Source: Escherichia coli (GTDB lineage Bacteria; Pseudomonadota; Gammaproteobacteria; Enterobacterales; Enterobacteriaceae). From it: 6,256 nt of DNA. The stretch lies in assembly GCF_003334385.1 (NCBI RefSeq), contig NZ_QOWN01000077.1; one strand, given 5' to 3'. Numbering within the stretch: position 1 is the stretch's first letter; the number at the start of each line of letters is the position of its first letter. The position numbers and the translations under genes are program-made. Positions 76-6,256 of the stretch are shown here, piece after piece. Under the pieces are notes generated by a model, which was given only the letters and a program-made list of their open reading frames with translations, was not told where the DNA came from and searched no databases.

Positions 76-341
76 GGCTACATCCACAGGTGGTCATTGA
101 GGCGAACTCAATTAGCGCGGTTCTGGAGCTGATTCGCCGCACTTCCCTTTCCACATTGTTACCAGCAGCGATTGCCACACAACATGACGGGCTTAAAGCT
201 ATTTCTCTTGCCCCGCCACTACTGGAGAGAACGGCGGTTTTGTTGCGGCGGAAAAATAGCTGGCAGACAGCCGCCGCGAAGGCATTTTTGCACATGGCGT
301 TGGATAAATGCGCGGTTGTTGGCGGAAATGAATCACGGTAG
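76..341 (+). pseudogene. cynR: 3' fragment of cynR (LysR-family regulator of the cyanate operon), truncated at the IS186 junction
   Basis: The frame translates ..[86 protein letters not shown] and ends at TAG 339-341, which matches the CynR C-terminus as I recall it. An in-frame TAA at 60-62 lies inside the putative IS inverted repeat, so only about 88 C-terminal codons of a ~299-aa protein remain here. Convergent orientation with codA matches the K-12 codA/cynR arrangement. Confidence 0.75.
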
Positions 342-369
342 CCGCTGACACAGGTCTGCGGCTGGAATT

Positions 370-449
370 GCCTGATGCGCTACGCTTATCAGGCCTACGA
401 GTTCAGTGCTCTACGTAGGCCGGATAAGGCGTTCACGCCGCATCCGGCA
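370..449. repeat. REP pair (BIME-like): gcctgatgcgctacgcttatcaggcctac (370-398) and inverted gtaggccggataaggcgttcacgccgcatccggca (416-449)
   Basis: Classic enterobacterial REP palindromes (GCCTGATGCG...TTATCAGGCCTAC and GCCGGATGCGGCGTGAACGCCTTATCCGGCCTAC families), in inverted orientation. Confidence 0.8.
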
Positions 450-569
450 TAAACTACAGCTGGCAGACAGCCGCTGCGAAGGCATTTTTGCACATGGCGT
501 TGGAGGAATGCGCGGTTGTTGGCGGGAATGAATCACGGTAGCCGCTGACACAGATCAGCGGCTGGAATT

Positions 570-649
570 GCCTGATGCGCTACGCTTATCAGGCCTACGA
601 GTTCAGTGCTCTACGTAGGCCGGATAAGGCGTTCACGCCGCATCCGGCA
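570..649. repeat. Second copy of the REP pair, within tandem-duplication copy 2
   Basis: Same sequences as 370-449 shifted by 200 bp; lies just 3' of the codA stop (678-680) and so is placed to act as the codBA 3' stem-loop or terminator. Confidence 0.8.
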
Positions 650-677
650 TAAACTAAGCTCGCTGTAACCCAGTCGT

Positions 678-1961
678 TCAACGTTTGTAATCGATGGCTT
701 CTGGCTGCTCCAGATATACGGTGGTTTGTGCCGGTTGTGTGCTGGCAATCACCTTGCCGCCACGTACCGAATAACGTACCGGAACCTGACGGCGCAGCGC
801 ATCAAACCCATTTTCAGCCGGCAGGATAATCAGGTTGGCGCTGTTTCCGGCGGCAATGCCGTAATCCTGCAAATTCAACGTCCTTGCGCTGTGGTGGGTG
901 ATTAAATTCAGGCCATCGTTAATCTGCCCGTAGCCCATCAACTGGCAAACATGCAGCCCCATATGCAGCACTTGCAGCATATTCGCCGTTCCCAGCGGAT
1001 ACCACGGATCGAAGACATCATCGTGACCAAAGCAGACGTTAATGCCGGACTCCAGCATCTCTTTAACGCGCGTGATGCCGCGACGTTTTGGATACGTATC
1101 GAAACGTCCTTGCAGATGAATATTGACCAGCGGGTTGGCGACAAAGTTAATACCGGACATTTTCAGCAAGCGGAACAGGCGTGAGGTATACGCCCCGTTA
1201 TAGGAGTGCATTGCCGTGGTGTGGCTGGCGGTGACTCGCGCGCCCATGCCTTCATGGTGCGCCAGGGCAGCAACGGTTTCGACAAAGCGCGACTGCTCGT
1301 CATCGATCTCATCACAGTGAACGTCGATGAGACGGTCGTATTTTTGCGCCAGGGCGAAGGTTTTATGCAGCGACTCCACGCCGTATTCACGGGTAAATTC
1401 AAAATGCGGAATCGCCCCCACTACATCTGCCCCTAAGCGTAACGCCTCTTCCAGCAACGCTTCACCGTTGGGATACGACAAAATCCCTTCCTGAGGGAAG
1501 GCGACGATTTGCAGATCAATCCACGGCGCGACTTCCTGCTTCACTTCCAGCATTGCTTTCAGCGCAGTTAGCGTTGCATCCGAAACATCGACATGGGTAC
1601 GCACATGCTGAATGCCGTTGGCAATCTGCCATTTCAGCGTTTGCCATGCGCGTTGTTTCACATCGTCATGGGTTAATAACGCTTTGCGCTCGGCCCAGCG
1701 TTCAATGCCTTCAAACAGCGTGCCGGACTGATTCCAGTTCGGTTGTCCGGCGGTTTGCGTGGTGTCCAGGTGAATATGTGGCTCCACAAACGGCGGTATA
1801 ACTAAACCTTGTTCGGCATCCAGGCTGTTTTCAGTTATGGGCATCACGCCGGATTGCGCATCAATGGCGCTGATTTTTCCGTCCTGCAGATGAATCTGCC
1901 ACAGCCCCTCTTCGCCTGGTAACCGGGCGTTAATAATTGTTTGTAAAGCGTTATTCGACAC
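678..1961 (-). CDS. codA: Cytosine deaminase (amidohydrolase superfamily), 427 aa, GTG start
   Basis: Translation [38 protein letters not shown]...[10 protein letters not shown] matches E. coli CodA as recalled, with the metal-binding motifs PHIHLD, VHCDE and CFGHDD. The ORF track starts at ATG 1976, but the known protein begins 5 codons later at GTG 1961..1959, preceded by GGAGG (minus-strand ATGTGGAGGCTAACAGTG). Stop TGA at 680..678. Confidence 0.95.
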
Positions 1962-3210
1962 TGTTAGCCTCCACATGCGTCATTGCTGCTGTCGTTTTAC
2001 GATTCAAAATCGGGTTAAGGATCAGATAGCTCAGCGCGCCACCTAATACCGCGTTGACCGGAACAATTCCCGGTAACCAGTGGCCTGCAGCAATCCCCAA
2101 GGCGACCGCCAGAATCGCCACCCAATTGACACTCATCATACGCGTGGTCGCAAAGTGCTCATAGCGGCGACGGTTCATCAGATAGTCGGCGATGATCACG
2201 CCACCCACTGGAGGAATAGCTGCCGAAAGGAAGGTCAACCAGCCGACAAAATTGTTATACAGCCATAATGCGCAGACCGTACCGATAATACCGTTGATTA
2301 CCGAAAGGGTTTTGCTCGACATCCCGGTAATGTTGGCGAAACCTAAACCCGACGCATAGAGTGCGTTATCGTTGGTGGTCCAGATATTCAGCCCCAGCAC
2401 CACAATCGCAGGCAGCAGCAGGCCCTGAGCAATCATCACATCAGAGATATCCGCCATGCCCAGTGCCGCAGCGCCCGCTGCACCGAAAATAAACATCAAC
2501 GAGTTGCCGAGGAAAAAGGCCACCATCGCCACCAGCACCGCCAGTTTGGCATTGCGACCAAACCGGACAAAGTCAGCGGTGAGCGTACCCGCACTGATAA
2601 ATGACCCCACAACCAGCGCCAGCGCGACATTGAAATCTAACGGTTGTGCGGGAACGACCGCTTTTAATGCGTCCAGGCCGCCCATGCCGTTAACAGCCAG
2701 CCACACGGAATAACCGCCCAGGCAGGCGATAGCCGGAACCGCAATCACCGAAAGAACCGTCAGCGCCGAAATGCCAAAAAAGACGGTGACGGTCATCAGT
2801 AAACCGGAAACGGCAATCAGCAAATTAATATCCAGCCCGGTTGCCTTACCCACCGGAATGGCAAACATCGCCACACCGACGCCAAACCAGCCAACCTGAG
2901 TTCCGCCCAGTAGCAGTGAAGGCAGCCATGAGCCTTTAACACCAAACGAGAAGCGAGCAAGAAGATGAGTGGTCAGGCCGGTTTTTGCGCCAATGTAACC
3001 GAGAAATGAAGTGTAAATACCGAGGAGAAGATTACCGATGAGAACTGCGAGGAAGAAATCATGATAGCTAAGACCGGTTCCGAGAGTGCCGCCGGTCCAC
3101 ATACTGGCGGAAAAGAAGGTTAATCCCAGCATGACGAACGTCAATGCCAATACCCCTTTCCGCGCCGACTGCGGGACTGGCCCCTGGCTAAAGTTGTTAT
3201 CTTGCGACAC
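1951..3210 (-). CDS. codB: Cytosine permease (NCS1 family transporter), 419 aa, GTG start
   Basis: Translation [33 protein letters not shown]...THVEANSVE matches E. coli CodB as recalled and is a hydrophobic multi-helix membrane protein. GTG start at 3210..3208 with AAGGGGGA Shine-Dalgarno upstream; stop TAA at 1953..1951 overlaps the codA start by 11 bp. Confidence 0.95.
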
Positions 3211-3276
3211 GAAATTCCCCCTTTTTGCTGTTTGAAACCCAAAAAATCCGCCGCATTCTATTCATCTGAAGATAAA

Positions 3277-3292
3277 AAGCAATCGTTTTCGT
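3277..3292 (-). promoter_or_regulatory. Putative PurR operator (PUR box) of the codBA promoter
   Basis: Minus-strand ACGAAAACGATTGCTT matches the PurR consensus ACGCAAACGTTTGCGT at 13 of 16 positions. It lies about 70-85 bp upstream of the codB GTG, consistent with known purine repression of codBA. Confidence 0.5.
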
Positions 3293-3297
3293 GGGGA

Positions 3298-3325
3298 AAT
3301 ATATTTTTTATATGAATGAGTGCAA
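3298..3325 (-). promoter_or_regulatory. Candidate sigma70 promoter for codBA: -35 TTGCAC (3325..3320), 16-bp spacer, -10 TATATT (3303..3298)
   Basis: Read from the minus strand: TTGCAC TCATTCATATAAAAAA TATATT, placing the transcription start near the PUR box. Motif-level prediction only. Confidence 0.3.
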
Positions 3326-3362
3326 AAAGGTGGGGGAAAAATTATCGGTGTAAAAACAGTGG

Positions 3363-3543
3363 GTAGGCCTGATAAGACGCGTCAGCGTCGCATCAGGCAT
3401 CTGAGCATGGTGTCGGATGCGACGCGAGCGCCTTATCCGACCTACGGTTCAGGTCCGTAGGCATGATAAAACGCGTCAGCGTCGCATCAGGCATCGGCAC
3501 ACAGTGCCGGATGCACCGCGCGACGCATCCGACAATAACCTAC
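3363..3543. repeat. BIME cluster of four REP elements in alternating orientation (3363-3399, 3411-3445, 3458-3494, 3506-3543)
   Basis: gtaggcctgataagacgcgtcagcgtcgcatcaggca, tgtcggatgcgacgcgagcgccttatccgacctac, gtaggcatgataaaacgcgtcagcgtcgcatcaggca and gccggatgcaccgcgcgacgcatccgacaataacctac form two ~95-bp units. The last REP overlaps the stop codon of the upstream ORF (TAG at 3542..3540). Confidence 0.8.
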
Positions 3544-3812
3544 TCTTCCATCGCCTGGCGGATCTGATCCAACGACGCAGGATCATCAATGGTCGTCAGA
3601 TCTCCAGGATCGCGTCCTTCGCAAATCGCCTGGATCGTGCGGCGCAGCATTTTTCCGGATCGCGTTTTTGGCAATTGCGAGACAAACCAGACGTGCGCCG
3701 GGCGGCCAAAGTTGCCAATCTGGCTGTCCACCAGCGCCATAATCGCCTTCTCTTGCGAGTGCGCCACATCACGATCTTCCAGACTGTCGCTCTCTTTCGG
3801 AATGACAAACGC
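3540..3812 (-). pseudogene. prpE: 3' remnant of prpE (last ~89-92 codons plus native stop), fused to yahJ
   Basis: Acyl-CoA synthetase C-terminal signature LPKTRSGKMLRR, and a position immediately upstream of codB separated only by the REP cluster, as for prpE-codB in K-12. The junction is inferred near 3805-3830 (protein ..DASCSAEAVA / FVIPKESD..). Confidence 0.75.
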
Positions 3813-5126
3813 CACCGCCTCGGCGGAACAGGAGGCGTCCACCAGCACAAAGCTGGCGTCATCCTGCGCTTTTGGCCATACACGCTCGCCTTTTTCATTC
3901 AGCGGCAATACATCGCCAGTGGCTAAAAACAGCGAGCGGGAGAGGTTCTGTTCGTTAGGACGAATATAGAGCTGCGCGTACAGATTGGCTTTTTCCAGCA
4001 TGTCGCCCAGACCATAAGGCGACCAGTGGTCGATAACGCTGTCAGTGCCAGTCATCACTTTTACGCCTTTGTCGTGCAACTGTTTGAGCGGCATATGCAG
4101 CGTGCCAATCGGCACCGTCGAGGCGATAGAAATTTGTTGCACCACCATCCGGTTCGCCAGTTCATCTACCTGTTGCTCGTTGAGCGTTGCCAGCGCAAAG
4201 GCGTGACTGATGGTCAGCTTGCCCTTCAGCTGTGGCGTTTTCTCTACCGTTTCAACCATATAATTGATGGCTGCCACGCCTGCCGGAGTGGTTTCGTGCA
4301 GGTGAATATCGACGCCTTTGTCGTAGTCCAGCGCAATCTGGAACATGGTGTCGAGGGATTTTTCCATCGCGCCATCAACACTGGTCGGGTCCAGGCCGCC
4401 GACGTAATGCGCCCCCGCCTGCATCGCTTCACGCATTAAAGGTTCAGATTTCGACAGCAGCAAACCGTGCTGCGGGAAGGCGACGATTTCACACTCAAAG
4501 CCCGCCTGACGTCGCGCCAGCACCGCCTGCAAATTTTGCAGATTTTTCAGGCCGGAAACCGGTTCGATATTGCAGTGGCTGCGGGCAATGGTGGTGCCTT
4601 TCGACTGCAATAAATCAATCAGTTTTTCTGCCCGCTCCTGAGTGTACGGTTGCAGTTCCGGCAGCATTTTCTGCTCGAGTTTGATCATGTCCTGGATGGT
4701 GGTGCCTGCCGGACGATTGAGCGAGCGCCACGGCCCGCCGTAAAAGGTTTTGTCGAGATGAATATGCATGTCGCGGGTGGTGGGCAGCATCAGCTTACCG
4801 CCAGCGTCATAGTGCGGCAGCGTGGCGTCCGGATGCAGCTTGTTCTCGCGCAGGGCGACAATTTTGCCGTCCTGAATCTCCACGGTCTGGCGCGCCGTGC
4901 GGGTCTGCACCGCCACGCCATTTTCGTAGTCAAAACCGGTTTCCAGCAGCACGTTATCGAGATAGTAATGCGGGTCAGTGATTTTCATGGTGTTGTTCGC
5001 TTCGCAGTTTAGGGTGCCAGCTACCGCCGCATGGGCGAGCGGCACAGAGGTACCAAACAGCGCGGCGGCGGTGACCATCTTACCGCTCTGGCTCAGAAAT
5101 TCACGGCGGCTATTGCTTTCTTTCAT
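3540..5126 (-). CDS. yahJ: Chimeric ORF, 528 aa: Tat-signal amidohydrolase (YahJ-like putative deaminase, ~439 aa) fused in frame to the C-terminal 89 aa of propionyl-CoA synthetase PrpE
   Basis: N-terminus MKESNSRREFLSQSGKMVTAAALFGTSVPLAHA carries a twin-arginine motif (SRREFL). The body has amidohydrolase motifs DMHIHLD, DIHLHET and GTDSVIDHW. The C-terminus FVIPKESDSLEDRDVAHSQEKAIMALVDSQIGNFGRPAHVWFVSQLPKTRSGKMLRRTIQAICEGRDPGDLTTIDDPASLDQIRQAMEE contains the acyl-CoA synthetase PKTRSGK motif and matches the PrpE C-terminus as recalled. ATG at 5126..5124 with AAGGA upstream. Confidence 0.8.
   Translation of the reverse strand: MKESNSRREFLSQSGKMVTAAALFGTSVPLAHAAVAGTLNCEANNTMKITDPHYYLDNVLLETGFDYENGVAVQTRTARQTVEIQDGKIVALRENKLHPDATLPHYDAGGKLMLPTTRDMHIHLDKTFYGGPWRSLNRPAGTTIQDMIKLEQKMLPELQPYTQERAEKLIDLLQSKGTTIARSHCNIEPVSGLKNLQNLQAVLARRQAGFECEIVAFPQHGLLLSKSEPLMREAMQAGAHYVGGLDPTSVDGAMEKSLDTMFQIALDYDKGVDIHLHETTPAGVAAINYMVETVEKTPQLKGKLTISHAFALATLNEQQVDELANRMVVQQISIASTVPIGTLHMPLKQLHDKGVKVMTGTDSVIDHWSPYGLGDMLEKANLYAQLYIRPNEQNLSRSLFLATGDVLPLNEKGERVWPKAQDDASFVLVDASCSAEAVAFVIPKESDSLEDRDVAHSQEKAIMALVDSQIGNFGRPAHVWFVSQLPKTRSGKMLRRTIQAICEGRDPGDLTTIDDPASLDQIRQAMEE
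5028..5126 (-). other. Predicted Tat (twin-arginine) signal peptide of the YahJ-like protein, ~33 aa, likely cleaved after AHA
   Basis: S-R-R-E-F-L motif followed by a hydrophobic stretch VTAAALFGTSVPL and an AxA site (AHA|AVAG). Confidence 0.55.
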
Positions 5127-6086: not shown

Positions 6087-6136
6087 GTTGTTATGTCCGC
6101 TACAGAGGGTGATGGGGTTATGACCAACGCCAGACT

Positions 6137-6256
6137 GCCTGATGCGCTACGCTTATCAGGCCTACAATTCTCGCGCCACTCGTAGGCCGGATAAGGCGTT
6201 CACGCCGCATCCGGCAATGGTGACAAATGCCTGATGCGCTACGCTTATCAGGCCTA
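6137..6256. repeat. BIME/REP cluster of at least three REPs (6137-6165, 6182-6216, 6229-6256), running off the window end
   Basis: gcctgatgcgctacgcttatcaggcctac, inverted gtaggccggataaggcgttcacgccgcatccggca, then gcctgatgcgctacgcttatcaggccta; the same REP family as at 370-449. Confidence 0.8.

Follow-up and report, generated by a model that had tools for sequence, protein, structure and literature searches.

The window analyzed here, i.e. the whole stretch of 6,256 nucleotides under study, contains on its minus strand the junction between codB and codA, and we are all but certain that codA is translated from a GUG codon at position 1961, inside the end of codB. The junction is that of the native E. 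coli codBA operon itself, not that of a relative. Taken as a whole, the observations are best explained by this native junction, the GUG start and a partial, putative coupling of codA translation to that of codB, a composite account that we consider quite probable. Both the codBA overlap and the codA GTG start are already known from the reference annotation, published N-terminal proteomics and initiation profiling, and they are of little consequence beyond correct annotation. In practice the GTG start is relevant because constructs that employ codA for counter-selection with 5-fluorocytosine or as a suicide gene, both widespread uses, must supply an ATG. Whether the 11-nt overlap couples the synthesis of the deaminase to that of the permease is a small question, the answer to which would leave the understanding of the system unchanged.

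The codB/codA junction and its surroundings

The window matches E. coli chromosomes. Its positions 132 to 3819 are 100% identical to E. coli K-12 MG1655 (NC_000913.3), in which RefSeq places codB at 354922-356181 and codA at 356171-357454, i.e. with an 11-nt overlap, and an identical codB/codA overlap is annotated by PGAP in other E. coli strains. In a phmmer search against PDB, CodA matches the cytosine deaminase entries 3o7u, 1k6w and 1r9x (E about 1e-294), which identifies it as the cytosine deaminase of the amidohydrolase fold. Counted on the long ORF the alignment starts with residue 7, i.e. Ser2 of CodA as read from the GTG; the solved chain of 1k6w likewise starts with this Ser2, and that of 3o7u one residue earlier, with residue 1.

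On the minus strand codB ends in GTC GAA TAA, with the TAA at 1953-1951, and the codA frame reads ATG (1976-1974), TGG, AGG, CTA, ACA, GTG (1961-1959), TCG, AAT and AAC; counted from the first base of the GTG, the codB TAA follows after 8 nt, and the overlap amounts to 11 nt (Table 1). The original prediction, made from the letters of the window, had described an 11-nt overlap of the codB stop with the codA GTG at 1951-1961, which is correct by sequence and identical to the overlap in the RefSeq annotation of K-12. It had further placed a GGAGG just upstream of the GTG and inside the end of codB, and this motif is indeed located at 1972-1968, within the codB codons GTG-GAG-GCT (Val-Glu-Ala), with a 6-nt spacer to the codA GTG. 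Likewise present as described is an in-frame ATG at 1976 that would add the five residues M-W-R-L-T; counted from this ATG the codA ORF has 432 aa (678..1976). The start codon of codB is also a GTG (3208-3210, minus strand), so that both cistrons of the operon begin with a non-ATG codon. The GUG start of codA was reportedly deduced from N-terminal sequencing by Danielsen and colleagues in 1992.

Table 1. Positions of the features discussed in the text, in window coordinates.
Feature	Position	Strand	Evidence
codB, cytosine permease, 419 aa	1951..3210	minus	ORF list, translation, RefSeq (E308, K-12), 100% nucleotide identity to K-12
codA, cytosine/isoguanine deaminase, 427 aa, from GTG 1961	678..1961	minus	translation, RefSeq, PDB matches, N-terminal peptides (PMC13245402 Table S1)
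codB/codA overlap, 11 nt, GTGTCGAATAA, two reading frames	1951..1961	minus	sequence; same K-12 annotation; 17/27 codB-linked loci
codA initiation codon GTG	1959..1961	minus	aligned start in 60/80 loci; Met-initial peptide; INRI-seq translation initiation site (TIS) peak 356171, 5/5 replicates
Shine-Dalgarno (SD) GGAGG for codA	1968..1972	minus	sequence; 16S 3' end duplex -9.3 kcal/mol; relatives; E. coli variants
codB stop codon TAA	1951..1953	minus	sequence, translation
ATG upstream in the codA frame, extension MWRLT, not the codA start	1974..1976	minus	no SD; conservation; N-terminomics; INRI-seq Table S3
In-frame fusion ORF yahJ(1-439)-prpE(last 89 aa), 528 aa	3540-5126	minus	

A consensus scan of positions 500..3700 returned a single sigma-70-like site, TTTGCA-17-TATATT at 3298..3326 (minus strand), which is a pattern match and lies upstream of codB; by the same kind of pattern scan there is no promoter-like or terminator-like site at the codB/codA junction (near 1900-2050). 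The lone promoter-like site upstream of codB is consistent with a single codBA transcript.

The junction is found at 90% identity or more in 5225 of 5426 complete E. coli genomes. In five divergent E. coli junctions the ATG, the GGAGG, the GTG and their spacing are all unchanged, and as all three elements are invariant these alleles are uninformative with respect to the choice between ATG and GTG. One strain, E. coli Z1323HEC0067, carries a natural deletion of 6 nt, CGAATA, aligned to window positions 1950-1955, which removes the codB stop together with codons 2-3 of codA; here codB is annotated as 5 codons longer, the overlap is 26 nt, and PGAP still places the codA start at the same GTG. Another, E. 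coli AR_0067, has an intact codB together with a codA that carries an internal stop and is annotated as a pseudogene.

Several features of the sequence around the operon were also noted. A 10-bp segment common to both genes, CGCCACCGCC at 3810-3819, links the 3' end of prpE to an internal part of yahJ, and both arms of the join are 100% identical to K-12 (prpE up to 3819, yahJ from 3810). This join implies a deletion of 11,872 bp relative to K-12 (about 342442-354313), which would remove the 3' end of yahJ, yahK to yahO, prpR, prpBCD and most of prpE, and the two remnants form an in-frame fusion ORF (Table 1). None of the 5426 complete E. coli genomes contains this prpE-yahJ junction. At the other end of the window, positions 1-74 are the end of an IS4-family element (CATAAGCGCTAACTTAAGGG...; annotated as IS421 in strain E308) that interrupts cynR; the gene is intact in K-12, and the insertion is common to E308, RM10410 and others. 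The cynR-codA spacer contains a tandem duplication (258-660; 2.0 copies of a 200-bp unit, 96% identical); the final 84 nt of cynR and REP-like sequence form part of it, and K-12 has it as well. Related REP-like copies at 6136-6256 account for the thousands of short BLAST matches that the window gives per genome.

The start codon of codA

As a measure of the ribosome-binding potential of a candidate start we took the most stable duplex that the 16S 3' end can form with the 18 nt preceding it. By this measure GTG 1961 has an anti-SD duplex of -9.3 kcal/mol, a value that puts it in the top 0.65% when all 620 ATG/GTG/TTG triplets of the window, both strands included, are ranked, whereas ATG 1976, at +0.3 kcal/mol, has no SD. 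To compare the arrangement with that of relatives, we used a scan of one genome per species, which yielded 80 loci with relatives of CodA (76-98% identity) from Enterobacterales, Pasteurellaceae and Aeromonas, each anchored on its own tblastn alignment. In 60 of these 80 species-representative loci the start with the best SD occupies precisely the place of the E. coli GTG in the alignment, where the codon is usually ATG and sometimes GTG; this comparison of start-site conservation, which had been proposed as a check on the GTG, thus favors it. The gene codB is directly upstream of codA in 27 of the 80 loci, and these codB-linked relatives have a GGAG/GAGG-like motif at an equal distance from the start. 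The rank of the GTG duplex in the top 0.65%, together with the conservation of the arrangement across genera, places this arrangement beyond chance.

Start codons at the -5 position, equivalent to ATG 1976, are restricted among the 80 loci to E. coli, Hafnia paralvei and a Yersinia group unlinked to codB; among the codB-linked relatives Hafnia paralvei alone has the -5 ATG, through different codB codons. The Yersinia group comprises six loci in which codA is not preceded by codB and in which the aligned position 0 is TTA or GTA, not a start codon. Judging from these sequences, the start of codA in this group is likely to be an ATG five codons upstream with a GGAG of its own. A start five codons earlier in Yersinia would mean that lineages differ by a few residues at the N-terminus of CodA.

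The original prediction had named N-terminal proteomics or ribosome profiling as a means of checking the start, and published data of both kinds favor the GTG. In TRAINSPOTTER, a deformylation-assisted N-terminomics study of E. coli K-12 (PMC13245402), rows 70-71 of Table S1 give two N-terminal peptides of codA/b0337, covering residues 1-13, with Met retained, and residues 2-13; both are assigned to the database-annotated TIS (dbTIS) GTG at NC_000913:356171-356173. A Met at a GTG codon, which within a gene would encode Val, arises by initiation alone, and the former peptide therefore marks the GTG as the start. In INRI-seq (PMC9825163, Table S2) codA initiation at 356171 is identified (TRUE) by initiation-complex footprints, with ribosome-protected-fragment (RPF) values of 229.8, 160.4, 242.2, 226.1 and 164.7 in five replicates. 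The same study gives an in vivo Ribo-RET signal of 17.9 at codA, likewise flagged TRUE, and INRI-seq also detects the codB start, for which the Ribo-RET signal is strong (503.6). A literature search for statements on the codA GTG start returned nothing relevant. With published N-terminal data and initiation footprints both at the GTG, the start site of codA can be regarded as settled.

The competing possibility is that translation of codA really starts at ATG 1976, or does so to a significant extent in addition to the GTG, so that CodA would carry the extension MWRLT. This in-frame ATG is the earliest start codon of the codA ORF, it is kept in Hafnia paralvei despite the different codB codons that encode it there, and the apparent start of the Yersinia group five codons earlier suggests that the family tolerates short extensions at the N-terminus; by the same token, an MWRLT-like extension would be structurally tolerable. 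However, the ATG has no SD (+0.3 kcal/mol) and is absent from the codB-linked relatives other than Hafnia paralvei, and the N-terminal peptides begin at the GTG-encoded Met or at Ser2. Initiation at this ATG was what the original prediction had named as evidence against the GTG, and neither an MWRLT nor a WRLTVS peptide is found among the listed rows of the N-terminomics table (PMC13245402). Table S3 of the INRI-seq study (PMC9825163), which collects non-annotated initiation sites, has no codA entry either; the codA transcript used there is synthetic and begins 30 nt upstream of the GTG, which puts ATG 1976 only about 13 nt from its 5' end. On the strength of its SD, its conservation and the proteomics we reject ATG 1976 as the codA start, and consider a true or significant role for it exceedingly unlikely. 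A related version, in which AUG 1976 rarely serves as an additional start and gives rise to a minor form of CodA extended by MWRLT, e.g. through terminating codB ribosomes that slide back past the GUG, we likewise think hardly to be expected.

With the start at GUG 1961, the GGAGG at 1972-1968, which is part of the last codB codons, positions the ribosome on the codA GUG; the GUG is read as initiator fMet, which is removed in part to leave the Ser2 N-terminus, and the upstream AUG at 1976 has no detectable use.

Putative translational coupling of codB and codA

The original prediction had also proposed, from the overlap, that the permease and the deaminase are translationally coupled. Judged from the geometry of the junction, i.e. 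a start 8 nt before the stop, an SD inside codB and a conserved overlap, such coupling is plausible. The two genes overlap in 23 of the 27 loci in which codB is directly upstream of codA, and in 17 of the 27 the overlap is exactly 11 nt. The latter are spread over several families of Enterobacterales, with Escherichia, Hafnia, Budvicia, Citrobacter, Salmonella arizonae, Kluyvera, Proteus, Edwardsiella and Zophobihabitans as the taxa represented; the other 6 of the 23 overlaps measure 8, 14, 20 or 32 nt. As all these lengths are 2 mod 3, the relative frame of the two genes is kept. In Pasteurellaceae and Plesiomonas codB and codA are adjacent without overlap.

A separate observation concerns the affinities of the E. 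coli proteins: CodA and CodB share 90% and 94% amino acid identity, respectively, with those of Hafnia paralvei, which has the same GTG start and the same -5 ATG, and only about 82-83% with those of four loci from Citrobacter and Salmonella arizonae. This closeness to Hafnia paralvei suggests that the codBA cassette may have been exchanged horizontally between lineages.

In terms of mechanism, a ribosome that ends codB would cover the codA initiation region, since only 8 nt separate the first base of the GUG from the codB stop, and after its release the SD and the GUG would be within reach. Part of the in vivo translation of codA would then probably proceed through termination-reinitiation, or through unmasking of the site by codB translation, and such coupling would tie the output of the deaminase to that of the permease. 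In the mixed model that we favor, reinitiating and free ribosomes would both feed the same SD-GUG. Termination-reinitiation operates at short overlaps in E. coli (PMC6728339, PMC10666635, PMC12548453), and overlapping E. coli gene pairs are in general tightly coupled (PMC10666635); the range taken as predictive of reinitiation in the latter study is -8 to +10 nt, and the 11-nt overlap falls outside it. A literature search for translational coupling of codBA returned only an unrelated Pseudomonas preprint.

The initiation profiles bear on this question in two ways (PMC9825163). The INRI-seq transcript of codA has no translatable codB, and the mean signal at codA in vitro is about 205 as against about 235 at codB, i.e. 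near parity; the isolated codA site is thus competent for de novo initiation on an RNA fragment in vitro. As this site loads ribosomes without translation of codB, coupling is possible but not required for initiation. In vivo, in Ribo-RET, where retapamulin stops upstream translation, the codA signal is about 28-fold lower than that of codB (17.9 versus 503.6). We take this contrast between the in vivo and in vitro signals at codA as a weak hint of a contribution from codB; it could also come from the efficiency of the GUG in vivo, from mRNA polarity or decay after translation arrest, or from noise in the peaks.

These same data have to be weighed for the view that codA is translated essentially independently, by free 30S subunits that bind a strong SD-GUG, with the overlap a neutral by-product of compact operon evolution. 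The robust INRI-seq initiation at 356171 on a fragment without codB translation and the strength of the SD (-9.3 kcal/mol) accord with it, as do the variation in overlap length (8, 14, 20 and 32 nt, with none in Pasteurellaceae), the natural E. coli strain in which a 6-nt deletion extends the overlap to 26 nt, and a predicted RNA structure that leaves the site unmasked. It fits less readily with the retention of exactly 11 nt in 17 of the 27 linked loci, from several Enterobacterales families, with an in vivo Ribo-RET signal about 28-fold below that of codB despite near parity in vitro, and with the tight coupling of overlapping E. coli pairs in the general literature (PMC10666635). We regard essentially independent translation as possible though doubtful; that codB makes a substantial in vivo contribution to codA translation through putative coupling we judge to have about an even chance.

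A further form of coupling would be mediated by RNA structure, with the codA SD and GUG paired to codB sequence and opened by the ribosomes that translate codB. The predicted minimum-energy fold places the GUG within a short stem (GACGCA.UGU / ACAGUGUC) whose loop contains GGAGGCUA; this would accord with such masking of the start codon, but the same prediction leaves the SD unpaired in the loop. Moreover, the 100-nt junction fold has z = +0.39 relative to shuffled sequences, 121 of 200 of which fold as well, the codA initiation region ranks at the 40th percentile for accessibility along the operon mRNA, and the isolated fragment initiates well in vitro (PMC9825163). Neither the 100-nt fold nor the accessibility along the operon points to a stable structure that sequesters the codA SD or start. 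As both are ordinary, we reject masking of the site as the mechanism and consider it very unlikely. The reading that we prefer remains a native codBA junction with a GUG start at which coupling to codB would be partial.

Comparison with known systems

In relation to E. coli K-12 codBA (b0336-b0337; Danielsen et al. 1992, Mol Microbiol 6:1335), the junction, the CodB of 419 aa, the CodA of 427 aa, the GTG and the overlap are all identical. The junction is without differences, whereas the flanks differ by the IS end in cynR (1-74) and by an apparent 11.9-kb upstream deletion that joins prpE and yahJ. When set beside the verified GUG-initiated genes of E. coli, such as cra and near-cognate starts of the rpsT type in the listed rows of Table S1 of PMC13245402, codA likewise has a GUG read as fMet, and it also gives both a Met-initial peptide and a form without the initiator Met, with no difference of note.

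The third comparison is with overlapping coupled gene pairs of the ATGA/TGATG type (PMC6728339, PMC10666635, PMC12548453). Like these, codB and codA are co-directional, the SD of the downstream gene is in the upstream ORF, and the codA start is a few nucleotides before the codB stop; a pattern scan shows no promoter-like or terminator-like site between the two genes, which would accord with a common transcript. The codBA overlap of 11 nt (2 mod 3) differs from the dominant lengths of 4 or 1 nt, and rather than two subunits of a single complex the genes encode a transporter and a soluble enzyme. What defines the coupled class is that the downstream gene depends on the upstream one being translated, and for codBA this dependence, suggested by the arrangement of the sequence, is putative.
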